Positions 8,591-60,562 of a DNA stretch of 64,000 nucleotides are shown here, piece by piece (position 1 is the stretch's first letter; each line of letters begins with the position of its first letter). This DNA comes from Deltaproteobacteria bacterium. Lineage in GTDB: Bacteria; Myxococcota_A; UBA796; UBA9615. The notes under the pieces are model-generated. The model saw only the letters and a program-made list of their open reading frames with translations. It ran no database searches and was not told where the DNA came from. The position numbers and the translations under genes were made by a program. The DNA lies in contig PBPL01000101.1 in assembly GCA_002724675.1 (NCBI GenBank), positions 8 through 64,007 of the forward strand, written 5' to 3'.

Positions 8591-8596
8591 GATCCG

Positions 8597-9615: not shown

Positions 9616-9676
9616 CAGTTTCCTACTTGGGGGCTGTGCAAGCGCCCTGGTGCGCAATGAGGCTGGCCCCTGTGGG

Positions 9677-10228: not shown

Positions 10229-10362
10229 CTTCTCCGGGTTGTAGTACGTGACGATCTCGCCTTCGGTGAACTCCCCTGGATAGGCGGACTCCGGCAAGAC
10301 CGGTCCATCCACCAGGTTCCTAAAGCCAGGGTTGCGCCCAAAGTCAGTCACAGAGGCTCCCT

Positions 10363-11598
10363 TCAGCTGCCGACGACAGCCAGCACGATGGCCGTCAACA
10401 GAAGGTTGAGGATGGAGATGGGCAAGAGAATCTTCCAGCCCAGGCGCATGATCTGGTCGTAGCGAAACTTCGGCAGAGTCCAGCGGATCAAGACCAGGAA
10501 CCAACAGAAGAAGGCCAGCTTGCACAGGAACGACAGGACCCGCATCACCACGACCACGACATGGGGTACGGTCGCGCCAAAGACCAGATTGCCCGGCACG
10601 AGCTCAGGATGCTGGGTCCAGTACCAGACGTCTGTGACCGCGTGCACTCCAGGGACATGGTAGGCACCAAAAAAGAGCGACGTCACGATGCCCGCAATCA
10701 CCGCGATCTCGATGAACTCACTCATCATGAACAGCCCCATCTTCATGGCGCTGTACTCGGTGAAGTAGCCAGCGACGAGCTCCGACTCGGCCTCTGGCAT
10801 GTCGAACGGCACCCGCTTGTTCTCGGCCATCATCGCCACCAGGAAGATGACGAACATGTGGGGCTGTACAAAGACACCCCAGGTCGGAATGAAGCCGAAC
10901 CAAACGTCGCCTTGCATCTGCGCGATGAGGCCCATGTCCACGGTGCCGTAAATCACGAGCAGGCCCAAGATGGCCATCCCCATGAAGACCTCGTACGAGA
11001 TCATCTGGGAGCTGGATCGAAGCGCTCCCATAAGGGCGTACTTGTTGTTGGACGACCAGCCAGCCAGAGCCGCCGAGAAGACTCCCGTACCGCCCATGGC
11101 AAACACGAACAACAGACCCACATTCAGATCGGCCAGCTGCAATTGAAATGTCGTGTCACCGAAGAAGTCGTGTGCCGTAGCAGCGAGCCCATCGGCGCCC
11201 ACGAAGAGCAGGACCTCTTCCAGCATCACGCCAGGAATAAAGGGGCCTCCAAACGGAACAACAGCGAAGGTAACCAGTACCGGGATCACGGCAAACCACG
11301 GCGCCAGGTTGAAGACGAAGCGGTCGACAAAGGGCGGCGTGAAGTCTTCCTTGGTCAGCATCTTGATCGCGTCAGCGATGCCGTGAAACAGCCCAATCAG
11401 TGTGAAGCGCTTGTACCAGCGGATCCCATCCTTGCCCGGGATCGGTATGGGGATGTAGGCCCGGTTGGCGCCGATGCGGTTGGCCATGACAGCCGCCTGC
11501 TTGCGCTCGACCCAGGTCAACAGACCCCCCAAGTTGAGCAGCAACCCGAGCACAAAGCCCAGGTTCAGCAACGCCACGACGACGAACGCGGGTTCCAT
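10363..11598 (-). CDS. nuoH: NADH-quinone oxidoreductase subunit H
   Basis: 411 aa of the NuoH/ND1 family (MEPAFVVVALLNLGF…WSSNNKYALMGALRSSSQMISYEV…). Confidence 0.9.
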   Translation of the reverse strand: MEPAFVVVALLNLGFVLGLLLNLGGLLTWVERKQAAVMANRIGANRAYIPIPIPGKDGIRWYKRFTLIGLFHGIADAIKMLTKEDFTPPFVDRFVFNLAPWFAVIPVLVTFAVVPFGGPFIPGVMLEEVLLFVGADGLAATAHDFFGDTTFQLQLADLNVGLLFVFAMGGTGVFSAALAGWSSNNKYALMGALRSSSQMISYEVFMGMAILGLLVIYGTVDMGLIAQMQGDVWFGFIPTWGVFVQPHMFVIFLVAMMAENKRVPFDMPEAESELVAGYFTEYSAMKMGLFMMSEFIEIAVIAGIVTSLFFGAYHVPGVHAVTDVWYWTQHPELVPGNLVFGATVPHVVVVVMRVLSFLCKLAFFCWFLVLIRWTLPKFRYDQIMRLGWKILLPISILNLLLTAIVLAVVGS

Positions 11599-11606
11599 GA
11601 CGTCTC

Positions 11607-13328
11607 TCAGGTCTCCAACACCCCGCCGAGGTGGCGGAATCCGGTCTGATTGCCTGGGAACTCAAAGCGGCCATCCAAGAACTCCCGGGCCTGCAGCTCG
11701 GGATCCTGCTTCAGCTTCTTGCGGGCCTCGCGGAGATTCTTCGCGGGCGACTTCAGTCCACCCGCATCGGCTATGGCCAGCAGGAGCTCAAAGCCGTCCC
11801 ACGCCCCCTTGGGTGGCCGCAGAGCCTTCTTGAACCGACTGTGGAATCCATCCACGTTGGTCCAAGTACCGTCCCGCTCCGCCCAGTTCCGCAGGGGAAT
11901 CACAGCGTGAGCGAGCGGAGTCACCGCGTCCACAGCATCCGTCAGCTGAATTACGCGGGCAACCTTCGCGAGGGCCTCAGCCACAGCATCGTCGCCGCCC
12001 CAGTCGTGGGCGAGCCCTGGACCCCACACAATCAACGTATCGATCTCGCCCGCCTGTGCTGCGGCGAGAATCCCAGCGAGGTCCTTGCCATCCTTCTTGC
12101 CGGGCGCGATGCCCGATGCTGAGGCGCCGAGACGATTGGGGTTGTGGTCGTCTGTGTGGAGCACGTCGTCGGCAGGATAGCCATCGACCCGGTCGGTCTT
12201 GACGGCCAGGTGCTGTCCCTTGACCCCCTTCCCTACCAGATGGCCCAGCAACCACGCCTCCTCGTTACTCATCCAACTCGAACCAATGACGGCCAGGCGT
12301 TCCCGACCCTCTTTCTTGTGGGCTGCCAAGCCCTCACCAATCCACGCGATGACATCCTCTGCAGAGGCCTGGTCCTTGCCGGCCAAGCTGGCTGCTGCCG
12401 GTCGCTCCGTAGCCGCCAACTCCTTGTAGAGGTCCCGGCCCTCGTTGCAGATCCAGAAGTCGTTCACGCCCGGGCGCTCCCGCGGCATGATGCGGATGAT
12501 CTCTTCTCGGTCGTGGTCCACTACCGTGTTGCAGGTGCGAGAGCAGCCACCGCAGACCGACTCCGTGTGCTTCAGGAACCAAACTCGCTTCTTGAAGCGG
12601 AAGTCTGTCTTGGTCAGGGCACCCACCGGGCAGATGTCCGCAACGTTGTCCGTGTAGGCGTTGGCGAAGTCGCCACCTTCGACCACCTCGACGATCGCCC
12701 GGTCCCCCCGATTGACGATGCCGAGCTCGTGGGTCCCCGTCACATGCTCGGTAAAGCGAGTGCAACGAGAGCAAAGAATGCAGCGCTCACCGTTGTAGAG
12801 AATGCGATCTCCAAAGGGAACTAGGCGAGGCTTGTGCACCTTCTCGTCGCGGACCTCCGACCGCTGTCGGTCGTGAAGCATGTAGTAGTCCTGCAACATG
12901 CACTCACCGGCCTTGTCACAGATGGGGCAATCGACCGGATGATTGAGCAACAAGAACTCCATCACCGTTGCCCTAGACTTCAAGACCTCGGGGGTATCCG
13001 TGAACACTTGCATGTTGTCTTCCGCATCGACCCAGCAGGTCACCGCGGGACGACGCGCGGGCATGTGCTTCTCCGCACGAGGATTCCAGGTACGGACATC
13101 CGCAATGCACATGCGGCAGTTGCCATCGACGGGCAGGCCCGGGTGATAACAAAAATGGGGAATGACCTTGCCCGCTTGCTTGGCCGCCTCGATCACCTTC
13201 GTCCCCTTGGGCACGGTGACCTCGATCCCATCAATGCTCAGCGTCACCGTCTCGGGCACGGGAGCGGTGGGCTCGACCGCCACCTCGGGTTTCTCCGACG
13301 CGCTCTCGCTTGTTGCGTTGTCCGACAT
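11607..13328 (-). CDS. nuoG: NADH-quinone oxidoreductase subunit G (short form, ~574 aa)
   Basis: N-terminal 2Fe-2S / 4Fe-4S ferredoxin-like Cys motifs (HFCYHPGLPVDGNCRMC…CPICDKAGEC) followed by a molybdopterin-oxidoreductase-like domain. The start is chosen at M26 (MSDNATSES…), 20 nt after the nuoF stop. Confidence 0.85.
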   Translation of the reverse strand: MSDNATSESASEKPEVAVEPTAPVPETVTLSIDGIEVTVPKGTKVIEAAKQAGKVIPHFCYHPGLPVDGNCRMCIADVRTWNPRAEKHMPARRPAVTCWVDAEDNMQVFTDTPEVLKSRATVMEFLLLNHPVDCPICDKAGECMLQDYYMLHDRQRSEVRDEKVHKPRLVPFGDRILYNGERCILCSRCTRFTEHVTGTHELGIVNRGDRAIVEVVEGGDFANAYTDNVADICPVGALTKTDFRFKKRVWFLKHTESVCGGCSRTCNTVVDHDREEIIRIMPRERPGVNDFWICNEGRDLYKELAATERPAAASLAGKDQASAEDVIAWIGEGLAAHKKEGRERLAVIGSSWMSNEEAWLLGHLVGKGVKGQHLAVKTDRVDGYPADDVLHTDDHNPNRLGASASGIAPGKKDGKDLAGILAAAQAGEIDTLIVWGPGLAHDWGGDDAVAEALAKVARVIQLTDAVDAVTPLAHAVIPLRNWAERDGTWTNVDGFHSRFKKALRPPKGAWDGFELLLAIADAGGLKSPAKNLREARKKLKQDPELQAREFLDGRFEFPGNQTGFRHLGGVLET

Positions 13329-13347
13329 GGTCCTCTCGCTCGAACAG

Positions 13348-14736
13348 TCAGGGCACGAACACGTGCTCGGGGTCATCGTGGCGCTGCGGCACACCGCCTC
13401 CACGCAGATTCAGGGGGTCAGGAAACTGGTTGTCGTACGGGCAGCAACCCTTGTCGATGTGCTCTTCGAACTCGCTGCGGAACACATCAATGAACGACTT
13501 CGTGGGCCAGGCAGCAGCATCGGCCAGGGTGCAGATGGTACGAAGCTCCATTCCGTCGGCGATGCGGTACAGCTCGTCGATGTCGTTGGGGCTGGCGTGC
13601 CCGTGCTCGATGCGATGCACAATGCGCTCAATCCAACCGGTGCCTTCGCGACAGGGAGTGCACTGACCGCAGCTCTCGTGGTGATAGAAGCGCAGCAACA
13701 CCCAGAGTGCCCGAACCATACAGGTGCCTTCGCCGATGACGATGACGCCCCCGGACCCGAGCAGCGTTCCGTGTTCCTGGCAGCTCTCGTAGTCCATGGT
13801 GATCTGCATGGCCGTGTCGGCATCGACCACGGGAACAGAAGACCCACCCACAATGAGTGCCTTGAGTGCGATGCCATCGAGCATGCCTCCGCACTCCTTG
13901 TTCAAAAGATCAGCAAACGGGTAGCCCATGGGCACCTCGTAGACACCCGGACGCTTGACGGGACCGCTGACGCTGAACAGCTTCGTGCCCGCGCTCTTCT
14001 CGGTGCCCCACCTCCGGTACCCCGTGCGGTCCACGGTTGCTCCCGCTCCCTGATCCGCGATGTACACAACGGAAGCGATGCTCTCTACGTTGTTCACGAT
14101 GGTGGGATAGCCGTAGACGCCATACACCGCCGGGAAGGGCGGCTTGATGCGAGGCTGGCCCTTCTTGCCTTCCAAGCTCTCGATTAGACCGGTCTCTTCG
14201 CCACAGATATAGGCCCCAGCACCCGAGTGCACCGTAATGTCACAGTCGAAGCCACTTCCGTAGAGATTCTTACCCAGGTGACCAGCTGCGTAGGCCTCTT
14301 CCACAGCGGCATGCATTCGCTTCAGGCAGCCGACGTACTCACCGCGAATGTAGATGTAGCAATTGTTGCTGCCCATGGCGTAGCAAGACAGCACACAGCC
14401 CTCGATCAACTGGTGAGGATTCTCTTCCATCACCACTCGGTCCTTGAACGTTCCCGGCTCGGACTCGTCCGCATTGACCACGAGCGTGATTGGACCCTCC
14501 GGATCTCTTGGAAGGAAGCTCCACTTGAGCCCAGTGGGGAAGCCGGCACCGCCGCGACCACGCAGCCCCGACTGCTTCACCTCCTCCAGCAGCGCCTCCG
14601 GCGTGTACTTCCCGCCGAGGGCTTCCTTCGCCGTCACATAGCCATGGCGAGACTCATAGCTGGCGAGCGGCCAACTCTCGGTGTTGCGCTCGAAGTTGAG
14701 CAGCACCCGGGCGCCATCCACAATGGGGTAGGTCAT
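13348..14736 (-). CDS. nuoF: NADH-quinone oxidoreductase subunit F (NADH/FMN binding, 51 kDa)
   Basis: It has GRGGAGFPTGLKW and the C-terminal 4Fe-4S motif ESCGQCTPCREG. Confidence 0.92.
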   Translation of the reverse strand: MTYPIVDGARVLLNFERNTESWPLASYESRHGYVTAKEALGGKYTPEALLEEVKQSGLRGRGGAGFPTGLKWSFLPRDPEGPITLVVNADESEPGTFKDRVVMEENPHQLIEGCVLSCYAMGSNNCYIYIRGEYVGCLKRMHAAVEEAYAAGHLGKNLYGSGFDCDITVHSGAGAYICGEETGLIESLEGKKGQPRIKPPFPAVYGVYGYPTIVNNVESIASVVYIADQGAGATVDRTGYRRWGTEKSAGTKLFSVSGPVKRPGVYEVPMGYPFADLLNKECGGMLDGIALKALIVGGSSVPVVDADTAMQITMDYESCQEHGTLLGSGGVIVIGEGTCMVRALWVLLRFYHHESCGQCTPCREGTGWIERIVHRIEHGHASPNDIDELYRIADGMELRTICTLADAAAWPTKSFIDVFRSEFEEHIDKGCCPYDNQFPDPLNLRGGGVPQRHDDPEHVFVP

Positions 14737-49529: not shown

Positions 49530-50462
49530 TTACTCGAAGCCAATCAGCCAGATCGCCTGTCCACCGTACTGCCCAGACAGGTCCGTGCCCACGTAGGGGT
49601 TGGTCTCGGTGTTCTTGAAGAACTCCCAGTATCCGTACCACGAAGAGCCGGGGCCCGCCGCAGCCGAGACCTGGTTGATACCAATCTCGTTGGACAGCGT
49701 TCCAGGGGTGTTGTTCACGAAACCAGCGTGGGTGAACTCAAGCCCGTACTCAGACAGGGTCTGCTCGATCTCGGCAGCGCTGTAGCCACCGTCCACCGTC
49801 AGCTCCATGCCCTGATCGCTCATCGTGGTGACATCCACCAAGCCGAGGCTGAGGAAGTCGCCCATGCCACCATCGGTGATGGGAGTCAGCAGCGAGGGGC
49901 CGAAGTTGGCGCCGGCGAGGTCCAGCTCGGCGACATCGCAGTCGTCCGGGTTGGTCGCAGGATCGGAGATGTCGGTGGCCGACGTGTGATCGAACTCAAT
50001 GGAGCCCGTGCAGTTGTTGCAGCCTTCACCAGCCAGGATGCCGGGGCCGAAGGTGGCAGAGCCAGCGATCTGAATCCACTGCGTGCAGTTCAGGATCTGG
50101 GTTGCCTCGTTGTACTCAGCCCAGTAGTTGACACCGAACACGGCAGAGATGTCGGTAGAGGAGTCGTCCACGGGGACCGCTTCCATCTCGATGGAGAAGC
50201 TGATGGCAGCCAGCGCGAACTCAGCCGCGGTGTCGTCATCATCATCGTCGTCATCATCATCGTCGTCGCCGAGGTTGTTACCACCGTCGTCGTCGTCGTC
50301 ACCAGGAATGTTGTTGCCGTCGTTGTCAGTGTCACCGTCGATGGACGAGTCGCCACCATTGGCACCATCTGTGCGGGCATCACAGCCCATTCCAACCAAC
50401 GCAACACCCACAACCAGCGCCAACATATAGCTACTGAACATCTTCACGATAACCTTGAACAT
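49530..50462 (-). CDS. Acidic lipoprotein with a poly-Asp tract
   Basis: The start is at M48 (MFKVIVKMFSSYMLALVVGVALVGMGC), with GGAGGGA upstream. It has a lipobox. It contains DDDDDGGNNLGDDDDDDDDDDDD. The C-terminal domain is of unknown function. Confidence 0.6.
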   Translation of the reverse strand: MFKVIVKMFSSYMLALVVGVALVGMGCDARTDGANGGDSSIDGDTDNDGNNIPGDDDDDGGNNLGDDDDDDDDDDDDTAAEFALAAISFSIEMEAVPVDDSSTDISAVFGVNYWAEYNEATQILNCTQWIQIAGSATFGPGILAGEGCNNCTGSIEFDHTSATDISDPATNPDDCDVAELDLAGANFGPSLLTPITDGGMGDFLSLGLVDVTTMSDQGMELTVDGGYSAAEIEQTLSEYGLEFTHAGFVNNTPGTLSNEIGINQVSAAAGPGSSWYGYWEFFKNTETNPYVGTDLSGQYGGQAIWLIGFE

Positions 50463-50704
50463 TCGGGTCTCCCTCCACCTCGCATATACCGACCAGACCG
50501 GTTGCAGACACCCTGCAACACGAACCATCCAGCCCAGCTGAGTGCGAGCGGCGAGCGGTATGTACCCGAGAGCCGCGCGAAAGAAAAGTCCTTTTTCGAA
50601 CAAGCCCTACGCGAAACGGCAACAGGCATCGAAATCGGAAAAAACAAGAAGAGACGCAACTTCAAGACAAGGTCGACGCTGTAACCGATAGCGGCAACCG
50701 CAGC

Positions 50705-51991
50705 TCAGTCAACGCGAACCTGCCTGGGAGGCTCCTTCGACGCCGAGACCGCTCTGACCCGAGCCGTATCCAGCTGACCTCGACCAAACTCCGAGTCGAT
50801 CTCGCGTGCCAGCGAGAGCACGAAGCGAAGAGTTTGCTCGAGAGCGCGGGGCTCTACCGAGTCCAATCGGTCCTGGTGCGTGTGTAAGACCTCCGCAGCC
50901 CTGCCACGAACCAACGTAGTGAGCGTCACCGCCCGGTAGCCGGCCTCCGTCACCGGACCCGCATCGGTTCGCCCCACAAGGGCGACCTCGCCGACCCCAT
51001 CGAACTCATCGGACTGAGCGAGACGCTCCGCCAGAGCAGGCAGGCTTGGTCTATATGGCAAGCGGTCCCAACGCCCTTCTGAGCTGACGAAGTGCAGCTC
51101 CCCACGGCCGACGTCGTCTAGGTTGACGAAGAAGGTCGCGCGCCGGTCCAGAAGATGAGCGAACTGGCGCACGAACGCCTTCATGCCGCCCGAGTCCGCT
51201 TCACGCGCGCCGGTCGCGAGGACCCACAGCTCGCAGTGCTCCAGTGGTTCATTCACCAGATGCTCCGCGGCCACTAGAGCCACCGCGAGGCCAGAGCCGT
51301 TGTCGATGGCCCCAGCGGTGGGGACAGAGCGCCACCAATCGATGGCAATGAGAAGCGTGGCGACGTGGATCCAGGCCGCCATCAGCAGCGCCGCAAGCGC
51401 GACGGGAGAGGGTTCAGGAAGCGCCAACGCCAAGATGGAGGCGACAAGTTGAGTAGCACCACCGACGAGTACAATGGTGCCAGGGTGCAGGGGCACACCA
51501 CCGATTAATTCATAGTGAGCCAGTCGCTTGACCCAGGGACTGAAGAGCGTGGACGCACCGGCCACGTCCGCATGCGCCACGAGCACCACCCGACCCCGAC
51601 TGCCCGGCTGCCGAAGGCGCGCGACCATATTGCCCGTCAGCTGCTTCATGAGAAGCCAGCGCACCAGACGCGGGCGGCCGCGAAGCTCACCCCAAAAGGA
51701 CAGCAAGACCAACGAAGTCAGCAACACAGGCCCCAACCCGTTGCTCAGAAGGGACCAGAGCAGGGCCACGAGCAGAAGGGCCGAGTGTGTCCCCAGCAGG
51801 ACAGAGGTCTGAGGAGCGCACACCGCCCCCTCAACGACCGTGTCCATGCCCAGCCGGTCTAGACGCCCGGCAAGCGCAGCCTGGGCCATGCGCTCACCTT
51901 GAGAACCCGCCAGTCGACCAGGCAACTCGGTGACAACCCCGATGAATTCCTTCATGCGTTGGACCGTCGATGTTTGATGCGAGTGTGACAT
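50705..51991 (-). CDS. M28-family metallopeptidase, membrane-anchored
   Basis: It has N-terminal TM helices, the …AIDNGSG… motif and other M28-like metal-ligand regions. Confidence 0.65.
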   Translation of the reverse strand: MSHSHQTSTVQRMKEFIGVVTELPGRLAGSQGERMAQAALAGRLDRLGMDTVVEGAVCAPQTSVLLGTHSALLLVALLWSLLSNGLGPVLLTSLVLLSFWGELRGRPRLVRWLLMKQLTGNMVARLRQPGSRGRVVLVAHADVAGASTLFSPWVKRLAHYELIGGVPLHPGTIVLVGGATQLVASILALALPEPSPVALAALLMAAWIHVATLLIAIDWWRSVPTAGAIDNGSGLAVALVAAEHLVNEPLEHCELWVLATGAREADSGGMKAFVRQFAHLLDRRATFFVNLDDVGRGELHFVSSEGRWDRLPYRPSLPALAERLAQSDEFDGVGEVALVGRTDAGPVTEAGYRAVTLTTLVRGRAAEVLHTHQDRLDSVEPRALEQTLRFVLSLAREIDSEFGRGQLDTARVRAVSASKEPPRQVRVD

Positions 51992-52073
51992 TGTCGAGAA
52001 GAGTCTAAACCGTTCGCTATACTCTCAAACCCCAGGGGTCGGTCTTCGGCCCATTACCTCGGTTAGGACCTCG

Positions 52074-53498
52074 ATGAACCTCGTTGTCGACGAGGTTGTT
52101 TCGCTGCACAGCGACAACCTCTCTCATGTATTCCATGTACCCACATCATCGCTGTATGCGATGGACTCCGAAACCATGTCTATCCTCGAGGGTGCTCGTG
52201 ATGGACTGCATACCGATCAGAGCCTGCAGAAACTGACGGCGGACTCAGGTCTCGACCCGGCCGAGGTCGAGGACATCATCGACAATTTGGTGAAGTTGCG
52301 TCTCCTGGTCCCACCAGGCGAGACCGGCAACCGAGGCCCACTTGCTGACCGGCCGCAGAGTGGCCGGAGCATGGGCAATCTCGTCCTCCACGTGGCACAC
52401 ACCTGCAATCTGGGTTGCGGCTACTGCTATGCGGAGCAAGGCCTGTACAAGGGCAAAGCCACCCTCATGAACGAAGAGCGAGCCCATGAATATGTGGACT
52501 GGCTATTCGACCAGTGTGATCCGGAGACCAAGTCTCTCGGCATCACTTTCTTCGGGGGCGAGCCACTGCTGAATCTGAAAGTCATGAAGTCCGCCGCAGC
52601 CCATGCTCGAGAACGAGCGGACACGGACAACAAGTCTGTGCGGTTCTCCGTGACGACCAACGGCACCCTAGTCACCCCCGAGATCGTCGACTTTCTAGCC
52701 GCCATCGACTGTGTCGTCACAGTGAGTCTGGACGGCATCGGCAAGACCAACGATCGCCTGCGCCCGTTCCACTCGGGCCGCGGGTCCTACGACCTCGTCC
52801 TGGACCGCATCCAACCGCTCCTCGAACGGGGCAAGGTGGCTGCCCGTGTCACCGTCACCCGGCAGAACCTCGATGTCGTAGACACCGTCACGACGCTCCT
52901 CGAACGAGGCTTCGCTGAGGTGGGGTGCTCGCCAGTCGATGCGAAGAATCCTGCCTACGACCTGCGAGGGGAAGACTACGAAGTGCTGCTCGATGGCTTC
53001 GGCACACTCTCCCGACGCTACATCGACGAGGCCGTGCAGGGTCGTAAGTACGGCTTCTCTAACATCGCCAACATCATCAAGGCGGTGCACCAAGGGCACA
53101 ACAAGGACTACCCGTGCGGCGCGGGGCTCCAGATGGTTGCGGGTGCCCCCAACGGTGAGATGAGCCTATGCCACCGATTCGTTGGTGAGCCGGACTACGT
53201 CCTTGGCAACGTCAAAGAGGGTGGAATCGATAGCCATCGTCGGCTTCAGATCCTCGAGGACATCCAGCTGTCCGAGCGATCCGACTGCTCCAGTTGCTGG
53301 GCCCGTTACATCTGCTCCGGCGGATGCCACCACGTCAACTTCCTGTTCGAGGGAGACCCCAGCCGCACTTACCTGACCCACTGTGACTACCTCCGAGCTT
53401 GGTATCGCATGGGCCTCGAAGCCTACGCTGAGATCATGTCACGCAACCCCGAGTTCGTCGGGGAGTTCATCGACCCCGGTTTTCTGTGCAATCAGTAA
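52074..53498 (+). CDS. Radical SAM / SPASM-domain peptide-modifying enzyme with an N-terminal RRE-like extension (QhpD-like thioether-forming maturase)
   Basis: It has the CNLGCGYC radical-SAM motif and a C-terminal SPASM region (CGAG…C…CSSCWARYICSGGCHH). The first ~90 aa read LYAMDSETMSILEG…DPAEVEDIIDNLVKLRLL, which resembles a PqqD-type RiPP recognition element (RRE). Confidence 0.85.
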   Translation: MNLVVDEVVSLHSDNLSHVFHVPTSSLYAMDSETMSILEGARDGLHTDQSLQKLTADSGLDPAEVEDIIDNLVKLRLLVPPGETGNRGPLADRPQSGRSMGNLVLHVAHTCNLGCGYCYAEQGLYKGKATLMNEERAHEYVDWLFDQCDPETKSLGITFFGGEPLLNLKVMKSAAAHARERADTDNKSVRFSVTTNGTLVTPEIVDFLAAIDCVVTVSLDGIGKTNDRLRPFHSGRGSYDLVLDRIQPLLERGKVAARVTVTRQNLDVVDTVTTLLERGFAEVGCSPVDAKNPAYDLRGEDYEVLLDGFGTLSRRYIDEAVQGRKYGFSNIANIIKAVHQGHNKDYPCGAGLQMVAGAPNGEMSLCHRFVGEPDYVLGNVKEGGIDSHRRLQILEDIQLSERSDCSSCWARYICSGGCHHVNFLFEGDPSRTYLTHCDYLRAWYRMGLEAYAEIMSRNPEFVGEFIDPGFLCNQ

Positions 53499-53535: not shown

Positions 53536-53832
53536 ATGAGCCGAATCAAGCCTCTGAACATTAAGGCAAGAGCTGTCGAAGCGAGCACAGACCGCGACGT
53601 GCGGGGCTACGCATTCGGCGACTGCTGCGCATCCTTCGCGCCGGGTTGGGAGGTGGGCACCCAAGACAACGCCGACCCCTGCCCGTGGAAGAGCGACCTC
53701 AGCCTCTGCTGGGGCACCTGCTACTGGATGGGTCAGGTGCCCGACTACATCTCGTACGGGGAGTGGCTCGACACCTGCGGCAACATTCAGAACGACTGGC
53801 GCAATCTCTGTACCATTCCGGACAACGGGTGA
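53536..53832 (+). CDS. Cys-rich precursor peptide (98 aa), resembling the QhpC gamma subunit of quinohemoprotein amine dehydrogenase
   Basis: The ATG lies 10 nt after AAAGGA. The 28-aa leader is MSRIKPLNIKARAVEASTDRDVRGYAFG. The core has 7 Cys, LCWGTCYW (a Cys-x5-Trp motif as in CTQ), PGWEV, QVPD and DWRNL. The stop lies 5 nt before the next start. Confidence 0.75.
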   Translation: MSRIKPLNIKARAVEASTDRDVRGYAFGDCCASFAPGWEVGTQDNADPCPWKSDLSLCWGTCYWMGQVPDYISYGEWLDTCGNIQNDWRNLCTIPDNG

Positions 53833-53837
53833 CGCTC

Positions 53838-54908
53838 ATGCTCCAGCGCACGAACTCCTATATCTGCACTCTGGCCGCTCTCGTCGCGGCTGCCGTCTGG
53901 CTGCTCGCCCTGCCTCAGCACACAGAGGCGGCGGGCGCTCGCACTGCATGGGTATCTAGCAACCACATCCAGGTCATTGACCTGGACACGGCTCGGGTCA
54001 TTGGCCGGCTGCCGCTCTCCGAGTTCATCCACGACATGGACTTCAGCGTGGACGGCAACCGCGTGTACGTAGGCAGCAGCAAGGGGCTGCGTGTGGCCGA
54101 TGCCAACGAGCTCCGGTTTGTGCAGCAGGTGTCCACGAGCATGACCAAGGCCGTAGCGGTCTCCAAAGACGGCAGTCGCGTCGCAGCGATTCATCCTGGG
54201 GACCGAGAGGCGACACAGGCAGCCCGGAAAGCTGGCCTTCCCCTCCCCCCCGCCAAGATCACGATCTACTCGACGCTGGACATGAAGGAACAGAGTTCCT
54301 GGCACGTGCACGCCATGACATTCGATGTCCTGTTCGCGCCATCGAACGATCGGGTCTACGTGTTGGTACCCCCCGAGGGCATGGTCTATGTCCACGACTT
54401 GAGTGGGGCAGTTCTCGACACCATTCAGCTCGTACCGAGGAGCCCCGAGGGTTCCCACCAGGGAGCAATGCTGACCTGGATGGCGCTCTCGCCCGATGGC
54501 CGATCGCTGGTGGTCCCCGGCACAACCGCAGACCGATCGTTCGTAGCAGAGGTCGACCTGGGCAACAGACGACCCCTGGATGAACGCGTGGTCCACCAAG
54601 ATCTGGGACACAACCGGAGGATCCAAGGGCTGGCTTGGGACGATGACGGCAGTGGTGTTTACGTCACTGCAGTGAACTCCATGGTCAAGTTCAATGGTCT
54701 CGGTCTTCCCATCGCCTGGGAATCCATGCCGCTCAACTACGTCGACATCGAGCCCATCCCAGGCACCAACGAGAACGTCCTGGTGGCGCCCATCTTCTCC
54801 AAGTCCAACAAGAGCGGGGGGGTCGCCATCTTGGGCGAAAACGGCGAGTTCCTGAGAACGGTGGAGTTGCCCGACATGAGCCCCTACTTCGTGGCTGTCC
54901 GACCCTGA
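53838..54908 (+). CDS. Secreted beta-propeller protein (YVTN-type repeats), QhpB beta-subunit-like
   Basis: It has a signal peptide (MLQRTNSYICTLAALVAAAVWLLALPQHTEAAG). It also has repeated …DGxRVYV… blades, which fits a 7-bladed propeller of ~326 aa mature length. Confidence 0.7.
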   Translation: MLQRTNSYICTLAALVAAAVWLLALPQHTEAAGARTAWVSSNHIQVIDLDTARVIGRLPLSEFIHDMDFSVDGNRVYVGSSKGLRVADANELRFVQQVSTSMTKAVAVSKDGSRVAAIHPGDREATQAARKAGLPLPPAKITIYSTLDMKEQSSWHVHAMTFDVLFAPSNDRVYVLVPPEGMVYVHDLSGAVLDTIQLVPRSPEGSHQGAMLTWMALSPDGRSLVVPGTTADRSFVAEVDLGNRRPLDERVVHQDLGHNRRIQGLAWDDDGSGVYVTAVNSMVKFNGLGLPIAWESMPLNYVDIEPIPGTNENVLVAPIFSKSNKSGGVAILGENGEFLRTVELPDMSPYFVAVRP

Positions 54909-54918
54909 CCACACTCTG

Positions 54919-54940
54919 CCTACACGCGCCCGACCGGGCG
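54919..54940 (+). promoter_or_regulatory. GC-rich inverted repeat CGCGCCCG-AC-CGGGCGCG immediately 3' of the beta-propeller gene. Candidate intra-operon attenuator.
   Basis: It forms a perfect 8-bp stem. The coordinates are approximate to +/-2 nt. Confidence 0.3.
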
Positions 54941-55072
54941 CGGCTGACGCAACTTGAGCAAGCCTCGGACCTTCGTCGGTCGGAGGCTGCCTGGCTATCC
55001 AGTCTGCCCGACTACAGCCGGCTCTATTTTGGGGTCGAGTTCTGCGAGCACCTGCTTCCCAGCGCGGACGAC

Positions 55073-55900
55073 GTGGAGGCCGCTTGCGACTTCTGCAACC
55101 GGCGTCAATGGAAGCTAACGCTGCTGACACCCTACGTAACCGACTGGGGGCTCGAGAAGATCGACCCACTCCTCCAGGCCCTAGACACCATGGCGCCCCA
55201 TGGCACCGAGGTGGTCGTCAACGACTGGGGAGTACTCCGCCAGGTAGCCAACCGCTCCAACGCAGACCTCTTGGTTGTACTGGGCCGAGGGTTGAACCGG
55301 ATGTTCCGCGACCCGAGAGTTCCCGATGTAGGTCCAGAACATCTGGGGGGAGACGCTCCACCGAGCGCTTGGCGTAGCGCGAGCCACCAGAGTCAGGGTT
55401 TCCGAACCATGCTCCGCTCGGCAGGCATCCAACGGATCGAAACGGACATGCCGATGCAAGGTATGCAGGACCTGGACCCCGACGAACAAGACCTGAAGCT
55501 AAGTGTTCACCTGCCCTATGGAATGGTGGCCAGCGGCCGCATCTGCATGATGAGCGCCCTTGGGCAGTCGGCTTCAGTGCGATTCCCCCCACCTCGCGCC
55601 TGCACTGCGCCCTGCCACGACTACACTTTGGAGCTTCGCGCGCCCTGGACGCGTCGAGCGGTTGGAGCAGGCCGGCTACCCCTGGTTGCAGAGGACAGCT
55701 TTCTGCCTCTAGACCACGTGCTCAATCGCCGTCGTAACGCGTTTCCAGCCCACGAGAATGACGACGCACCGAGGTTCATCCAGAAAGGCAACACCCACTT
55801 CTACTGCCTGGACGAGGAGAAGGTGGACAGTGCGCTGGACTGGGTCCACCGCAACCCCACAGCAGACCGCATCGTGGTAGCACCTGACGTGCCCATGTAG
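55073..55900 (+). CDS. U32-family protein, UbiV-like. The true start is probably upstream, near 55000.
   Basis: …DFCNRRQWK… aligns to the UbiV AVCSKRR Cys-ligand region. …VVVNDWGVLRQVANR… aligns to the UbiV LLEANDLGAVQLAHE region. The in-frame upstream sequence encodes a conserved-looking LYFGVEFCEHLLP, but there is no ATG/GTG/TTG until 55073. Confidence 0.7.
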   Translation: MEAACDFCNRRQWKLTLLTPYVTDWGLEKIDPLLQALDTMAPHGTEVVVNDWGVLRQVANRSNADLLVVLGRGLNRMFRDPRVPDVGPEHLGGDAPPSAWRSASHQSQGFRTMLRSAGIQRIETDMPMQGMQDLDPDEQDLKLSVHLPYGMVASGRICMMSALGQSASVRFPPPRACTAPCHDYTLELRAPWTRRAVGAGRLPLVAEDSFLPLDHVLNRRRNAFPAHENDDAPRFIQKGNTHFYCLDEEKVDSALDWVHRNPTADRIVVAPDVPM

Positions 55901-55928
55901 GCTTGCGAGCCCTAGGACCCAGAGCCCC

Positions 55929-57035
55929 GTGCAAATCCTTTGCCCCGTCAACAGCCCCGAAGAGGTCGCTCCGCTTGTGGATGCAGGGGCGGACGAGTTC
56001 TACTGCGGCCTGTTCCCCACAGAGTGGTACGAAAAGTGGGGTCGTGGGAGCTGGCCTAACCGGCGCGGACCAGGCCCGGCCAACATCAGCAAGATTGACG
56101 ACCTGGCGCGGCTGGCAGACAGCGTGCACACCGCAGGCTCCGGTGGGCCCAACCAGCGGCGAGTTCCACTGTTCGTTGCGCTAAACCAACAGTTCTACCC
56201 AGACGACCAGGCGGACTTCCTCCTGGGGATCGCTCAGGACCTCCAGAGCCGCTCCGCTGTGGACGCCTTCATAGTGAGTGACCCCGGCTTCATGGGCCTC
56301 TTGAAGACTGAGATTCCGGAGGCGCGAGTCTTCTCCTCCACGGTGTCTGTTGCAACCAATGCTCAGGCGGTCCGGTTTCTTGCGGACTTGGGATGCTCCC
56401 GAGTCATCCTGTCCCGTCATCTGCACCTGGCCGAGGTCGAGTCGCTGCAACAATCCGTCCCCGATGTGGAGCTGGAGGTCTTCCTGCTCAACGACAACTG
56501 TTATTTCGAGGAAGGCTTCTGCAGCACGACACACACCATGCCGGGCTTCGGTGTCTACTGCATGACACCGTGGGAGCTGAGAGTCACCCGCGATGATCAG
56601 GGGGGGCAGGGTCTATCCGATCCCGAGGAGCGAGCTCGCTGGGACTTTCTCATCGACGAGCACCGACGCTTCCTGGGCAATCTGTCGCACCGGGGTTTTG
56701 GGGGCGGTCGCGCAGCAGTTCCGCTCGGACCATGCGGACTCTGCGCGATCCCCAAGCTCATGGACCTGGGCATCCACAGCGGCAAGATCGTGGGTAGGGA
56801 GGCCAGCCTGTATCGAAAGATCCGCTCTGTTCAGTCCGTCCGATACGTACGGGACAGCTATCGAGAAACCGGAGATGCTCAAGAGGCAAAGAAGAAGGCA
56901 GTAGAGCTTCGTGCTGACCCACGGGGTTGCAGTAGCGGCATGTCCTGTTACTACCGTAGCGCCCGAGACCGCGACCTCATCCCCCTGCCCTCCCGGAGCA
57001 CCAAGAAGCCGACTCGAAACGCGACCAAGCCATGA
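55929..57035 (+). CDS. U32-family protein, UbiU-like
   Basis: MQILCPVNSPEEVAPLVDAGADEFYCGL matches the UbiU/RlhA N-terminus (MELLCPAGN…GADAVYIGL). There are Cys clusters (NDNCYFEEGFC…, PLGPCGLC). Confidence 0.75.
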   Translation: MQILCPVNSPEEVAPLVDAGADEFYCGLFPTEWYEKWGRGSWPNRRGPGPANISKIDDLARLADSVHTAGSGGPNQRRVPLFVALNQQFYPDDQADFLLGIAQDLQSRSAVDAFIVSDPGFMGLLKTEIPEARVFSSTVSVATNAQAVRFLADLGCSRVILSRHLHLAEVESLQQSVPDVELEVFLLNDNCYFEEGFCSTTHTMPGFGVYCMTPWELRVTRDDQGGQGLSDPEERARWDFLIDEHRRFLGNLSHRGFGGGRAAVPLGPCGLCAIPKLMDLGIHSGKIVGREASLYRKIRSVQSVRYVRDSYRETGDAQEAKKKAVELRADPRGCSSGMSCYYRSARDRDLIPLPSRSTKKPTRNATKP

Positions 57036-58927
57036 CCTCAAAGGGGTCCCCTCCCCCCTCTCCAGCCTTTGTGCCCGAGGCCATACGGCCGGACTCGGTG
57101 CGCCCAGCCGACACGGAGGTGTCGGAGCACACGAAGGTCCCCTGGAAGCGCGTCTTCAGCTACCTACTGCCCTACTGGAAGGCCGAGGTCCTTCTGGTGC
57201 TCGGTATGGCGATCGGTATTGGGCTCTCCTTGGTCTACCCGTTCCTGCTGCGAGAAATCGTCGACGATGTGGTGGGCCCCGGCGCCTCGGCTGCGACCGA
57301 TCGATTGTTACCCCTTGCCGCCCTCATCCTGGCCGCCACGGCCGGCGGGGTCGTGCTCTCTGCCGCTGCCGCCTGGCTCCAGACCTGGGTCACAGCACAC
57401 GTCCTCGTTGATCTCCGCTTGGAGTTGTTCCAGCACCTTCAGTCATTGGGCCCTGCTTTCTTTGCCCGCAAGCGACTGGGGGACGTCCTGTCTCGCATGG
57501 GAGGAGACCTCGCCGAGCTGCAACAGGTGGCCACCGGAACTCTCATCAATGTCATTGGGTCGGTCGTCACACTCGTGGGAGTCATCACGGCGCTCACCTT
57601 CCTCCAGCCCCTATTGCTTGCCGTAGGCGCGGCGTTCATCCCCATCGCTATCGGCTTACTGGTGCTGCTTCGGCCCATCATCCGGCGCCTGTCTTTGAGG
57701 ATTCGAGAGCGCAACGCTGACATCTCCCATCAGATGTTGGAGAGCCTAACCGGCCTGCGCACGGTCCTGGCCCACGGGCTTGCCGACCGAGAAGCGAAGC
57801 GGTTCGAGGGCAACAACTTGGCGTTGATCCGAGCCGTTCTGCTCTTCCGCCTGTGGAACTCGGGATCAGCCGGCGCCTTCCAGATCCTCGTCACGGCGAA
57901 CCTCCTGGCTGTCCTCGTCGTTGGTGTCTGGCTGATGCGAACGACTGCGATGACCCCAGGCGACCTCGTCGCGTTCCTCCTGTTCCAACAGCGACTCTAC
58001 GGTCCGCTGCAGGGGCTGGCGGGCACTTATGTCAATCTGCAGCGGGCAGCAGCGTCAGTGGCGCGAGTCTTCGAGTTGCGCGACGCCAAGCCCCTGGAGG
58101 CTGCCGACCCGGCCCTGTCCCTCGACGAACCCTTCCAGGGACGCGTCGAGTTCGACAAGGTTTCGTTCCAATACGCTCCCGGACGACGGGTTCTGACCGA
58201 CCTGACGATGCGAGTGGATCCCGGAGAGACCGTGTGCCTGGTCGGCCCCTCAGGAGTGGGCAAGACGACCGTCCTCGAGCTCATGTTTCGATTCGTCGAC
58301 CCCGATGAGGGACGCGTTCTACTGGACGGCATCGATCTTCGAGAACTGGACCTCGACAGCGTTCTGCCCCAGGTCGCGTTGGTAGGCCAAGAGCCCGCGC
58401 TGTTCGATGGCACTCTACGCGACAACCTCCGATGGCTCCGGCCGGACGCGCCAGAGGCCACCATGAACGAAGTGGTCGAGCAAGTGGGCTTGTCGGAGTT
58501 CGTCCGCAGCCTGCCCCAGGGGCTGGAGACTCCTCTCGGCGACCGCGGCATTCGCCTGTCCTCTGGGCAGCGCCAGCGCATCGGGCTCGCCCGCGCGCTT
58601 CTCCGAGAACCCGTCCTCTTGGTGCTGGACGAAGTCACCTCGGCCCTGGACTGGGAGAGTGACCGGCTCGTCGTCGAAGCACTCCAAGCTCGGCGAGCCT
58701 CGGGCTGCACCACCCTGATCATCTCCCACCGCCTGCATCTTGCCGTCGATGCAGACCGAGTCGTCGTACTAGAAGACGGTCACGTGGCGACCACAGGCAC
58801 CCACCTCACCCTGCTCGACCAGGGCGGACTGTACCGCAGACTTTGGGACTTGCAGCGAGGCGCGGCAGAGGCCAGGAGGTCCCCCAGCAGCGGCAGAACA
58901 CACCCCACCGAGGACGGCTCGGCGTGA
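57032..58927 (+). CDS. ABC transporter, fused permease/ATPase exporter (QhpF-like)
   Basis: It has 6 TM helices, Walker A GPSGVGKTT, the signature LSSGQRQRIGLARAL and Walker B LLVLDEVTSALD. There is an ATGA overlap with the U32 gene. Confidence 0.85.
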   Translation: MTSKGSPPPSPAFVPEAIRPDSVRPADTEVSEHTKVPWKRVFSYLLPYWKAEVLLVLGMAIGIGLSLVYPFLLREIVDDVVGPGASAATDRLLPLAALILAATAGGVVLSAAAAWLQTWVTAHVLVDLRLELFQHLQSLGPAFFARKRLGDVLSRMGGDLAELQQVATGTLINVIGSVVTLVGVITALTFLQPLLLAVGAAFIPIAIGLLVLLRPIIRRLSLRIRERNADISHQMLESLTGLRTVLAHGLADREAKRFEGNNLALIRAVLLFRLWNSGSAGAFQILVTANLLAVLVVGVWLMRTTAMTPGDLVAFLLFQQRLYGPLQGLAGTYVNLQRAAASVARVFELRDAKPLEAADPALSLDEPFQGRVEFDKVSFQYAPGRRVLTDLTMRVDPGETVCLVGPSGVGKTTVLELMFRFVDPDEGRVLLDGIDLRELDLDSVLPQVALVGQEPALFDGTLRDNLRWLRPDAPEATMNEVVEQVGLSEFVRSLPQGLETPLGDRGIRLSSGQRQRIGLARALLREPVLLVLDEVTSALDWESDRLVVEALQARRASGCTTLIISHRLHLAVDADRVVVLEDGHVATTGTHLTLLDQGGLYRRLWDLQRGAAEARRSPSSGRTHPTEDGSA

Positions 58928-59658
58928 ACAAGTCCACTACAGACCGAGGTCCTCTGGTCGCTGTCGTGGACAGTGGCGTGGCAGCCGGACACCCGCACTT
59001 GGAAGGCCTACAGTTGCGTTCCTTCTCCCTCGAGGGAGCGGGATCACCACTGGACCGACGGCCAGAGGCATCGGACCGGACAGGGCATGGCACTGCGTGT
59101 GTTGCCGCCCTATACCGGGCGAATCCCCGGGTGGAGGTCCTAGCAATCCGTCTCTTGGATGAAGAGTTGAGAACAACCGCCGAGGCTGTGGCCGAGGCGA
59201 TCCGCGTCGCTGCCGACGAAGGAGCGAAGGTCATCAACCTCAGCCTGGGCTCGGGCAGGGCCGAATCGAGGTCCCTACTGGAGGAGGCCGTGCTGTACGC
59301 CAGGGAGCGGTCAGCACACTGTGTGGCTGCCGCCCACCCAAAGGGACGGCAGCTTTGGCCAGCCGACCTGCCCAGCGTGATCTCAGCGATTAGTCACCGC
59401 AGTTGCCCTCTCAGCGACCTGTATCGTGTGGAGGGGCCACTGCCCCGGTTTCTCGCGCACGGCTATCCACGGCCCATCGAGGGCCGGCCCCCCACCGCCA
59501 ATCTGTACGGCCCATCGTTTGCCGCCATTCACTTGTCAGCAAAGGTTGCGGAGATTCTGACCAGAGACTCCCAGTTGGCATTCTCCGACATCGTCACCTG
59601 CCTGGAAGAGAGCTGTTCCGGCTCCTGGAATGAAACCAGCACTCACCCTAGGTCTTGA
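58924..59658 (+). CDS. Small intracellular subtilisin-like serine peptidase (S8), QhpE-like leader peptidase candidate
   Basis: The GTG start overlaps the ABC stop (GTGA). It has the D (VVDSGV), H (HGTACVA) and S (GPSFAAIHLS) catalytic motifs. There is no signal peptide. It is ~244 aa. Confidence 0.75.
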   Translation: MNKSTTDRGPLVAVVDSGVAAGHPHLEGLQLRSFSLEGAGSPLDRRPEASDRTGHGTACVAALYRANPRVEVLAIRLLDEELRTTAEAVAEAIRVAADEGAKVINLSLGSGRAESRSLLEEAVLYARERSAHCVAAAHPKGRQLWPADLPSVISAISHRSCPLSDLYRVEGPLPRFLAHGYPRPIEGRPPTANLYGPSFAAIHLSAKVAEILTRDSQLAFSDIVTCLEESCSGSWNETSTHPRS

Positions 59659-59683: not shown

Positions 59684-60562
59684 GTGTACATGTCTCCCGC
59701 ACCTGACGAACCGAGCTTCGAAGACGCTGAAGAGGCGTTCGAGCGTGGCGACGTCGAGACTGCCCTGGCGATCTGTGAGGGCTACCTCGGCGAAGACGAG
59801 TCCAAGGCACCCGTCGAGGCCCTCTACTTAGCTGCAGAGTGTCTCCTGGAGCTCCAGGAGGTCACCGAAGCGACCCACATGATCGACCTGGCCTTGAACG
59901 AGCACCCAGACGACGCCGTGCTGGTACACACGAAAGCCATTTGCTGCTTCGAGCAAGCCAAGCTCGAAGATGCTCGGAAGGGCTTCGAGAGAGCCGCGAA
60001 CCTGGACGACCAACTGGGGGAGCCGCTGTTCTACCTAGGCATCCTGACCGAACGAGACGGTGACTTCGGCGCAGCAGACCGCCTCTTTGAGCACGGTGTT
60101 CGCTTGGACCCCGAGAACCTGTCCCTGCCGGTCGATTGGCCGGCCGACAAGGTTCGCCAGATCTTCGATGAGGTGGTCGAAGAGATGCCAGATCCTTTTG
60201 GCATGTGGCTGGCTGGTCTGCGCGTGGACGTGGCCGACCTTCCCGACGACGCTGCTCTGGCTGCCGCAGAGGGACCCATCTCCCCACTCGTTCACTGTCT
60301 CTTTGACGGGCCAGCACCAAGCCCTCCGGCGGAGAAGACGGACCCCGACGAGTGGCTTACGACCCACCCGAGCCGCGTCCGACTGTTTCGACGCAACCTG
60401 GGCAAGAGCGCCCACGACGAGTACGAGCTACACCGAGAGATACTCGAAGCTCTCCTCTGGGAATCCATGGAGTTCCTGGGCCTCGACGAGGGACACCTGG
60501 CCAAGCTCGGTATCCTCGACGACGAGGACGACGAGGCGCTGCTCCCGGGCAAGCCCCACTAG
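59684..60562 (+). CDS. TPR-like protein with a C-terminal acidic / zincin-like (DUF1025-like) region
   Basis: It has an N-terminal TPR-like helical repeat, and a C-terminal …HDEYELHREILEALLWESMEFLGLDEGHLAKLGILDDEDDE. The assignment is weak. Confidence 0.4.
   Translation: MYMSPAPDEPSFEDAEEAFERGDVETALAICEGYLGEDESKAPVEALYLAAECLLELQEVTEATHMIDLALNEHPDDAVLVHTKAICCFEQAKLEDARKGFERAANLDDQLGEPLFYLGILTERDGDFGAADRLFEHGVRLDPENLSLPVDWPADKVRQIFDEVVEEMPDPFGMWLAGLRVDVADLPDDAALAAAEGPISPLVHCLFDGPAPSPPAEKTDPDEWLTTHPSRVRLFRRNLGKSAHDEYELHREILEALLWESMEFLGLDEGHLAKLGILDDEDDEALLPGKPH

Follow-up and report, generated by a model that had tools for sequence, protein, structure and literature searches.

The described routes to tryptophan-derived quinone cofactors all depend on O2 or on O2-dependent enzymes, namely QhpG, LodB/GoxB, and MauG (PMC7876137, PMC11951088). 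In the quinohemoprotein amine dehydrogenase (QHNDH) system, QhpG is a flavin adenine dinucleotide (FAD)-dependent monooxygenase that dihydroxylates Trp43 of the crosslinked gamma subunit QhpC (PMC7876137), and the flavoproteins LodB and GoxB are required for formation of cysteine tryptophylquinone (CTQ) in LodA and GoxA (PMC4417212, PMC11951088); a 2025 review of CTQ biogenesis gives QhpG, LodB, and GoxB only (PMC11951088). UbiU/UbiV, TrhP, and RlhA have been linked to a way of hydroxylating aromatic rings that needs no O2 and draws the oxygen from prephenate (PMC10990095, PMC6599085), and it has been suggested that U32 proteins have this donor in common (PMC10990095). Of the twelve U32 subfamilies, most are uncharacterized (PMC10990095), and the substrates given for U32 oxidases in a 2024 review are quinones and RNA only (PMC11574389).

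Here, a 64,000-nucleotide stretch of DNA from a Deltaproteobacteria bacterium (GCA_002724675.1, contig PBPL01000101.1, positions 8 to 64,007 of the forward strand; hereafter, the window) was analyzed together with related loci. The window carries a qhp-type operon in which two adjacent genes, ORF1 and ORF2 (ORF, open reading frame), the latter coding for a U32-family protein, are located between the propeller and exporter genes. The initial annotation of this stretch had proposed that the pair stands in for QhpG on the QhpC Trp. Synteny, exclusion with QhpG, invariance of the CTQ residues, and replacement of LodB in a second system give this proposal strong support, suggesting that the pair is probably a cytoplasmic Fe-S hydroxylase of the U32 type that oxygenates Trp43 of QhpC in place of QhpG. 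The genes from qhpD to qhpE are as follows:

52074..53498, + strand: qhpD-like radical S-adenosylmethionine (SAM)/SPASM maturase, 474 residues (TIGR03906, PF04055)
53536..53832, + strand: qhpC-like gamma-subunit precursor, 98 residues, the presumed substrate (PF08992, NF037958)
53838..54908, + strand: qhpB-like beta-propeller protein, 356 residues, with a signal-like hydrophobic N-terminal segment (1jju_B match)
54905..55900, + strand: ORF1, candidate U32 partner subunit without annotation, 331 residues from a CTG start; predicted triose-phosphate isomerase (TIM) barrel with four invariant Cys
55929..57035, + strand: ORF2, U32-family protein, predicted Fe-S, 368 residues from a GTG start (PF01136)
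57032..58927, + strand: qhpF-like ATP-binding cassette (ABC) exporter, 631 residues (PF00664 and PF00005, generic ABC type)
58924..59658, + strand: qhpE-like subtilisin (S8) from a GTG start (NF049966, PF00082)

The gene pair and its presumed substrate

The seven genes form a tightly coupled operon, with three 4-nt overlaps (CTGA between the propeller gene and ORF1, ATGA at 57032-57035 between ORF2 and the exporter gene, and GTGA between the exporter and S8 protease genes) and remaining gaps of 5-37 nt. The initial annotation was correct in placing two co-directional genes between the propeller and exporter genes, in assigning the second of them to U32, and in noting that it overlaps the exporter start. 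The best NCBIfam match of the qhpD-like product, which also matches PF04055, is TIGR03906 (QHNDH maturation protein; 373.8 bits, below the cutoff of 453), and that of the qhpE-like product is NF049966 (QhpE; 128.9 bits, below the cutoff of 165). The propeller protein, which occupies the slot after qhpC in all related clusters, has weak matches to propeller families and a match to the QHNDH beta subunit (1jju_B; E=0.003).

The qhpC-like gene starts with an ATG at 53536, preceded by AAGGA, and its product passes the cutoffs of both PF08992 (41 bits; cutoff, 25) and NF037958 (63 bits; cutoff, 50). Alignment to 1jmx_G and 1jju_C revealed that the crosslink pairs C7-E16, C27-D33, and C41-D49 are kept, as is the CTQ pair C37/W43. 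The same residues (C7, E16, C27, D33, C37, C41, W43, and D49) are kept in every QhpC recovered from clusters that contain the ORF1/ORF2 pair (pair-type clusters); in this survey, two loci (L047 and L066) gave no QhpC match, and one sequence (L088) ends upstream of C27.

ORF2 matches PF01136 with 121.2 bits (cutoff, 22.4) over residues 109-342 and falls below the cutoffs of the UbiU equivalog model NF047963 (72.7 bits; cutoff, 440) and the TrhP equivalog model NF011996 (82.5 bits; cutoff, 534); sequence comparison of ORF2 with PDB chains gave no match. The hhalign comparison with Escherichia coli UbiU returned 99.3% probability over the N-terminal 181 residues, and identity to UbiU and TrhP is 25-28% over the aligned core. 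Residues C191, C198, and C211 of ORF2 align with C169, C176, and C193 of UbiU, and the counterpart of the fourth UbiU-type ligand (UbiU C232) is ambiguous between C269 and C272. In the alignment of ORF2 homologs, the invariant Cys residues are C191, C198, C211, C269, C272, C334, and C340, which include both motifs that had been singled out at the outset, NDNCYFEEGFC (C191 and C198) and PCGLC (C269 and C272). Wherever a qhp-linked ORF2 sequence spans the respective columns (42 sequences), C269, C272, C334, and C340 are all present, and 40 of the 42 have His202. These four extra Cys are also present in most U32 partners of ORF1-like proteins outside qhp clusters and are lacking in E. coli UbiU, TrhP, and RlhA, the last of which has a His at the column of residue 202. 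The extra Cys, together with His202, may form an additional metal or cluster site, and, judged from its sequence, ORF2 represents a distinct, Cys-enriched U32 subfamily.

ORF1 is a genuine gene, and its start at GTG 55073, as initially annotated, did not hold: homologs place it at ~54905. The frame is open upstream of this GTG through a stretch with no ATG, GTG, or TTG, and the full-length sequences among 242 ORF1 homologs found begin with the pattern M.L.LHAPDR.RL, which corresponds to ~54905 in the window. The sole start candidate at this position is a CTG overlapping the TGA stop codon of the propeller gene (CTGA, 54905-54908). An identical CTGA overlap was found in a close relative (L001, 8978-8981). 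At the corresponding place there is CTGA in L014, L015, and L021, TTGA in L019 and L020 (as letters alone, the upstream gene ends not being assigned), and an in-frame GTG in L003 and L017 (upstream gene ends likewise not assigned). The 56 added residues hold the invariant Cys47 (GVEFCEH) and are modeled by AlphaFold as barrel strands and helices with a predicted local distance difference test score (pLDDT) of 91-96. Because ORF1 starts at ~54905, the public gene calls P0001 (275 residues) and P0002 (301 residues) are truncated and lack one invariant Cys. A programmed frameshift that would fuse the propeller to ORF1 was judged unlikely, since the propeller has a signal-like N terminus and ORF1 is Cys-rich without a signal peptide.

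Four Cys residues of ORF1 are invariant (C47, C214, C233, and C237). The Cys of DFCNRR, regarded in the initial annotation as a conserved ligand, is not among the conserved residues, and the invariant Cys lies in GVEFCEH instead. The pattern C...C-x18-C-x3-C resembles C39/C180/C193/C197 of UbiV, as matched by eye with no significant alignment. The AlphaFold model of ORF1 is a TIM barrel (pLDDT, 82; predicted template modeling score, 0.84), and a search of PDB chains with the ORF1 profile recovered de novo TIM barrels only. Comparison of the ORF1 profile with a U32 alignment gave a local match only (92.7% probability over 74 columns), and the best score of PF01136 against the ORF1 family was E=0.18, in one of 24 members; as a control, E. 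coli UbiV scored 363 bits on the NCBIfam UbiV model. The designation of ORF1 as a UbiV homolog by sequence was therefore dropped, because hhalign comparisons of the ORF1 family with single E. coli UbiV or UbiU sequences were not significant and the ORF1 hidden Markov model (HMM) matched no E. coli U32 protein. ORF1 is thus best described as a divergent U32-partner subunit, UbiV-like by analogy and not by demonstrable sequence homology. A search of 1.84 billion representatives at E<=1e-3 puts the family at ~2,054 clusters at 50% identity. One 705-residue protein (P0330) has an ORF1-like region (residues 8-294) fused to a U32 domain (residues 417-646), providing Rosetta-stone support for a complex of ORF1 with its U32 partner; the two proteins probably form a heterodimer.

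Genomic association of the pair with CTQ enzymes

A pattern scan of one genome per species (185,579 species) identified ORF1 relatives in 266 genomes, and the best 80 of the corresponding loci were surveyed for neighboring genes. The co-occurrence of the pair with qhp genes, a survey of which the initial annotation had called for, was found in 41 of these 80 loci, where qhp genes adjoin the ORF1 relative; a U32 gene is visible in 36 of the 41, the others being cut by contig ends. For loci with >70% guanine-plus-cytosine content, HMM domain coordinates were used for genes, and a neighbor-joining tree of the U32 proteins served as a rough clade guide only. Within the window's lineage (L001-L006), the order M28 peptidase/qhpD-qhpC-propeller-ORF1-U32-exporter-S8 is kept down to an ORF2 identity of 43-48% over the aligned core (41-46% by tblastn). 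In distant phyla, too, the pair is located between qhpB and qhpF, in entire qhp operons that include the heme subunit: in the complete genomes of two Bacillota isolates, Aneurinibacillus thermoaerophilus (CP080764.1) and Neobacillus mesonae (CP022572.1), with the full QhpA/C/D/B/F/E set in each; in Acidobacteriota; and in the Syntrophobacteraceae isolate Desulforhabdus sp. TSK. Desulforhabdus is strictly anaerobic.

Two loci of this type show insertions. In L003, a gene for a 1053-residue Ser/Thr kinase/AAA/TPR protein (6726-9887, - strand) separates ORF1 from ORF2 and runs on the opposite strand, indicating that the pair need not be strictly co-translated. In the P0156 locus, where the pair is present, a gene for a 555-residue DAO/DAO_C (GlpD-like) flavoprotein (12914-14581), whose Pfam family is not QhpG-like, separates the exporter gene from the S8 gene.

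Taxon labels of metagenome-assembled genomes (MAGs) such as Heliobacteriaceae, Clostridia, and Rickettsiales were considered as evidence for anaerobic hosts and rejected. The QhpC of a MAG labeled Heliobacteriaceae (L038) is identical to that of a Blastocatellia MAG (L035), showing that such labels are unreliable, and physiology was accordingly taken from isolate genomes only. Comparison of L044 and L061 with L008 and L050 likewise revealed that QhpC sequences of MAGs labeled Heliobacteriaceae or Clostridia are identical, or nearly so, to those of Blastocatellia, and MAGs of the window's lineage are labeled variously as Rickettsiales, Deltaproteobacteria, or Proteobacteria.

To search for QhpG, an HMM built from three sequences was used, replacing a single-sequence model judged too thin. 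No match was obtained at E<=10 in the 64-kb window, in agreement with the initial report that QhpG is missing. The 41 pair-type qhp loci were likewise empty, both at E<=1e-3 and at E<=10; hence, no qhpG homolog adjoins the pair in the window or the related loci. Four canonical loci of Proteobacteria (L010, L011, L095, and L096) reached 45-700 bits with the same HMM; they come from members of Paracoccus, Cupriavidus, Leisingera, and Novosphingobium and all lack ORF1 and ORF2. The HMM also detects LodB-like proteins (at ~45-110 bits) in most LodA-like loci, which indicates both that its sensitivity is adequate, so that the negative results count, and that LodB/GoxB are homologous to QhpG. The pair and QhpG are therefore mutually exclusive in all loci examined. 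One canonical locus, L011 from a plasmid of Novosphingobium sp. RL4 (unannotated in PLSDB), had been a candidate for a third kind of cluster lacking QhpG and the pair alike; this was rejected when a divergent QhpG-like ORF (13229-14587; 44.6 bits) was found there, with no U32 pair. The QhpA of this locus is closest to the Acidobacteriota type, and so the type of alpha subunit and the type of hydroxylase are not strictly coupled.

Besides the QHNDH type, the known CTQ enzymes are LodA and GoxA. In four Myxococcota loci, the pair is located directly 3′ of a gene for a LodA-like protein, as identified by LodA_N and LodA_C domain matches:

LodA-like gene plus pair: L082, 7938-11901; L045, ~6793-10885; L098; L099

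The first two loci come from a Myxococcaceae MAG (L082) and a Polyangiales MAG (L045); their U32 proteins fall within the qhp-linked clade in the absence of qhp genes, their flanking genes differ, and no flavoprotein was found at either locus. In L082, the stop codon of the lodA-like gene overlaps the ATG of the ORF1-like gene (ATGA), and the stop codon of the latter overlaps the ATG of the U32 gene (TGATG). The L082 LodA-like protein keeps the equivalents of LodA Cys516 (DFNDC) and Trp581 (GWWP). Its leader is twin-arginine-like (FTRRAFMVG), as would fit a protein that matures in the cytoplasm. A metagenome scan with this protein yielded 79 LodA-like loci, 49 of which extend for >1.5 kb downstream. 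Among these 49, a LodB-like (QhpG-HMM-positive) ORF without the pair is located downstream of lodA in 47, directly adjacent in most, and the pair without a flavoprotein is found in the remaining two (L098 and L099, of the L082 lineage). Two unrelated CTQ enzyme systems thus have the same gene pair in place of the flavoprotein.

The qhp clusters with the pair differ in their alpha subunit. An HMM for QhpA, the di-heme alpha subunit, had no match in the 64-kb window or in loci of the close lineage; QhpA was found in 18 of the 41 pair-type qhp loci, those of other phyla. The final enzyme of the window is thus a heme-less variant, and the same variant occurs in L001-L006, L012-L023, L034, L041, L049, L069, and L086. 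Its QhpC subtype is characterized by a DCC doublet, by a DPC-PW stretch two positions shorter than in canonical QhpC, and by an extra Cys near the C terminus (NLCTI).

The proposed reaction and its alternatives

In the proposed maturation pathway, the QhpD-like radical SAM enzyme would make the Cys-Asp/Glu thioether links in QhpC, after which ORF1/ORF2 would place two oxygens on the indole ring with no need for O2. Prephenate would be the most likely oxygen donor, by analogy with UbiU/UbiV, and the electrons would leave through the Fe-S clusters. The QhpF-like ABC exporter would then move the peptide to the periplasm, the QhpE-like S8 protease would cleave off the leader, and the peptide would assemble with the propeller subunit. 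Trp hydroxylation, the prephenate donor, and O2 independence are each considered probable. Several hydroxylations on one ring by one U32 system have a precedent in ubiquinone synthesis. The electron-rich indole would be a plausible substrate for the proposed oxidize-then-hydroxide-transfer mechanism (PMC10990095).

Like UbiU/UbiV, the pair is a two-gene system with one clear U32 protein and a second Cys-rich subunit, and it presumably acts as one enzyme in several hydroxylations of an aromatic ring. It differs from UbiU/UbiV in its presumed substrate (peptidyl or protein Trp versus a prenylated phenol), in having no UbiT nearby, in its reversed gene order, in that ORF1 is missed by UbiV and U32 models, and in the extra invariant Cys of ORF2 (C269/C272, C334, and C340). 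TrhP (ho5U34 in tRNA) and RlhA (ho5C2501 in 23S rRNA) share with it the U32 domain, the first two cluster Cys, and an aromatic ring in a macromolecule, but each is a single polypeptide with an RNA substrate. With QhpG, the pair has in common the operon context, the presumed substrate and step, and a cytoplasmic location of action before QhpF export, whereas the fold and cofactor are unrelated: QhpG is a flavoprotein that takes both O atoms from O2, and the pair is a predicted TIM-barrel Fe-S system expected not to do so. The slot directly downstream of the lodA-like gene, filled by the pair in L082, L045, L098, and L099, is the point of likeness to LodB and GoxB, which are flavoproteins unrelated to U32.

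Chorismate mutase makes prephenate. A U32 protein 46% identical to ORF2 (P0171; L009 223-1566) has a C-terminal chorismate mutase domain (CM_2), and a cut ORF upstream of it matches the C terminus of ORF1. A locus search found no chorismate mutase near other pairs beyond this fusion. Pairs of an ORF1-like and a U32 gene also occur in further genomic contexts: beside genes for a methylmalonyl-CoA-mutase-like protein, MeaB, FAD_binding_3, a BcrAD/BadFG-type ATPase, and HGD-D (L046, 5757-16084), beside DUF3160, FG-GAP, and TANGO2 genes (L065, 9872-15760), and beside genes for an arylsulfotransferase-like (ASST-like) propeller and a DoxX/MauE-like membrane protein (L075, 8461-12536). The ORF1-like plus U32 heterodimer type is thus broader than CTQ biogenesis. 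Within the latter, the evidence leans toward a general role, in which ORF1 and its U32 partner would constitute an O2-independent, prephenate-dependent protein-Trp hydroxylase for both QHNDH-type gamma subunits and LodA-like oxidases that displaced or preceded QhpG/LodB.

Several points weigh against assigning Trp hydroxylation to the pair. ORF1, as either the 275- or the 331-residue protein, has no match in Pfam or NCBIfam, including PF01136 and the UbiV model NF047965; its HMM has no match among E. coli U32 proteins; and its fold matches a U32 structure (PDB 5d88) no better than other TIM barrels. Three members of the qhp-linked clade (L022, L024, and L075) have neither qhp nor lodA genes within 10 kb, and the non-CTQ contexts of L046 and L065 indicate that the pair is not specific to CTQ. 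The association with LodA comes from two lineages, and the chorismate mutase fusion is a single case. The absence of QhpG applies to loci of ±10 kb and the 64-kb window, not to whole genomes. Lacking QhpA, the window cluster would give an end product other than canonical QHNDH. The Aneurinibacillus, Neobacillus, and Blastocatellia hosts are probably aerobes; with many hosts of this kind, O2 independence need not be the selective reason for the pair. Furthermore, no U32 protein has been reported with direct in vitro hydroxylase activity (PMC10990095).

Since linkage and flavoprotein displacement are all that the loci show directly, the pair could act on QhpC and LodA-like proteins at a different step, such as linking Cys37 to Trp43 by a thioether, the last oxidation to the quinone, or relaying electrons for QhpD, with Trp hydroxylation being autocatalytic or performed by an unlinked enzyme. 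Some steps in biogenesis of tryptophan tryptophylquinone (TTQ) and CTQ are indeed thought to be autocatalytic (PMC7876137), and the three or four invariant Cys of ORF2 beyond the UbiU-type ligands suggest extra redox capacity. However, the displaced qhpG and lodB genes are both assigned to oxygenation or cofactor generation (PMC7876137, PMC4417212, PMC11951088), canonical clusters carry out the other steps without a U32 protein, both like-for-like positional replacements point to the same reaction, and the documented role of U32 proteins is ring hydroxylation, all of which makes a different step unlikely. It is also rather improbable that the pair hydroxylates Trp with a donor other than prephenate, for example water or O2. 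Such a donor would fit the probably aerobic habit of many hosts and the standing of ORF2 as a distinct subfamily with extra Cys, only 25-28% identical to UbiU/TrhP, and the prephenate dependence of UbiU/V, TrhP, and RlhA was demonstrated only genetically (PMC10990095). On the other side stand the chorismate mutase fusion in a close relative of ORF2 (46% identity) and the alignment of the N-terminal 180 residues and first three cluster Cys with UbiU at 99.3% probability.

The characterized U32 proteins all act on quinone precursors or RNA (PMC11574389), and relatives of the pair are found in other contexts, so that the two genes might belong to an unrelated pathway (anaerobic ubiquinone or menaquinone synthesis or RNA hydroxylation) and merely be located in the operon. 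This is very hard to reconcile with their fixed position in the qhp clusters of Bacillota, Acidobacteriota, Thermodesulfobacteriota, and the window's lineage, with the overlap of their start and stop codons with neighboring genes, with the parallel linkage to LodA-like genes, and with scores far below the cutoffs of the UbiU, UbiV, and TrhP equivalogs. Moreover, a ubiT-like SCP2 gene, named in the initial annotation as a sign of such a pathway, is lacking: phmmer with E. coli UbiT found none at E<=1 in the window and L001-L096. The family name and the historical assignment of U32 as collagenase-like peptidases, along with the peptide substrate of the operon, could also suggest that both proteins are true peptidases that process QhpC, in leader removal or quality control. 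This alternative is scarcely credible: a dedicated QhpE-like S8 leader protease is present, the groups of invariant Cys are of the kind typical for Fe-S U32 oxidases, and the gene that the pair replaces codes for a flavin monooxygenase, not a protease. Hydroxylation of QhpC Trp43 by the ORF1/ORF2 pair accordingly remains the preferred interpretation.

Flanking features and biological implications

Three further features adjoin the genes described above:

50705..51991, - strand: M28-family peptidase, divergently transcribed (PF04389)
51994..52023, + strand: promoter-like site upstream of qhpD, within the 82 bp that separate qhpD from the divergent M28 peptidase gene
59684..60562, + strand: TPR + Zincin_1 protein, last gene of the operon (Pfam domains)

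Between 51500 and 61000, the promoter-like site is the sole sigma-70-like match, no more than the 1.2 expected from shuffled sequence, which makes it a weak indication of a promoter; equally weak as evidence is the lack of any terminator-like site on the + strand within the operon. The M28 peptidase gene is kept beside the cluster in the window's lineage (L001-L006 and the P0156 locus), and the TPR + Zincin_1 gene is kept in L001, L003, L006, and the P0156 locus; neither neighbor is found in the Bacillota or Acidobacteriota clusters. An ORF at 49530-50603 (- strand) codes for a long Asp stretch that also includes Gly and Asn (…DDDDDGGNNLGDDDDDDDDDDDD…), and an ORF of similar size without annotation is located at the same position in L001 and L003.

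Full-text literature searches brought up no paper in which U32 is connected to tryptophylquinone, QHNDH, QhpC/QhpD, or LodA, or prephenate to cysteine tryptophylquinone; in public annotation, the proteins of the pair are named "hypothetical" or "U32 family peptidase." The pair would be a U32 hydroxylase that works without O2 on a protein and would represent a new route of CTQ biogenesis, one not described in the literature searched. In addition, this analysis defined the ORF1 family as a new, previously unannotated protein family and corrected its gene starts.

The crosslinked QhpC peptide of ~70 residues, already produced and analyzed by mass spectrometry in the work on QhpG, would be a convenient substrate for the first in vitro hydroxylation assay of a U32 enzyme, and the cultured hosts of the cluster, whose genomes are complete (A. 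thermoaerophilus, N. mesonae, and Desulforhabdus sp. TSK), make the question directly testable. If the proposed function is correct, the pair would provide the U32 oxidase class with its first protein substrate, beyond lipids and RNA, and would constitute the first anaerobic route to a tryptophylquinone, thereby explaining how a CTQ enzyme can be manufactured in a strict anaerobe such as Desulforhabdus.

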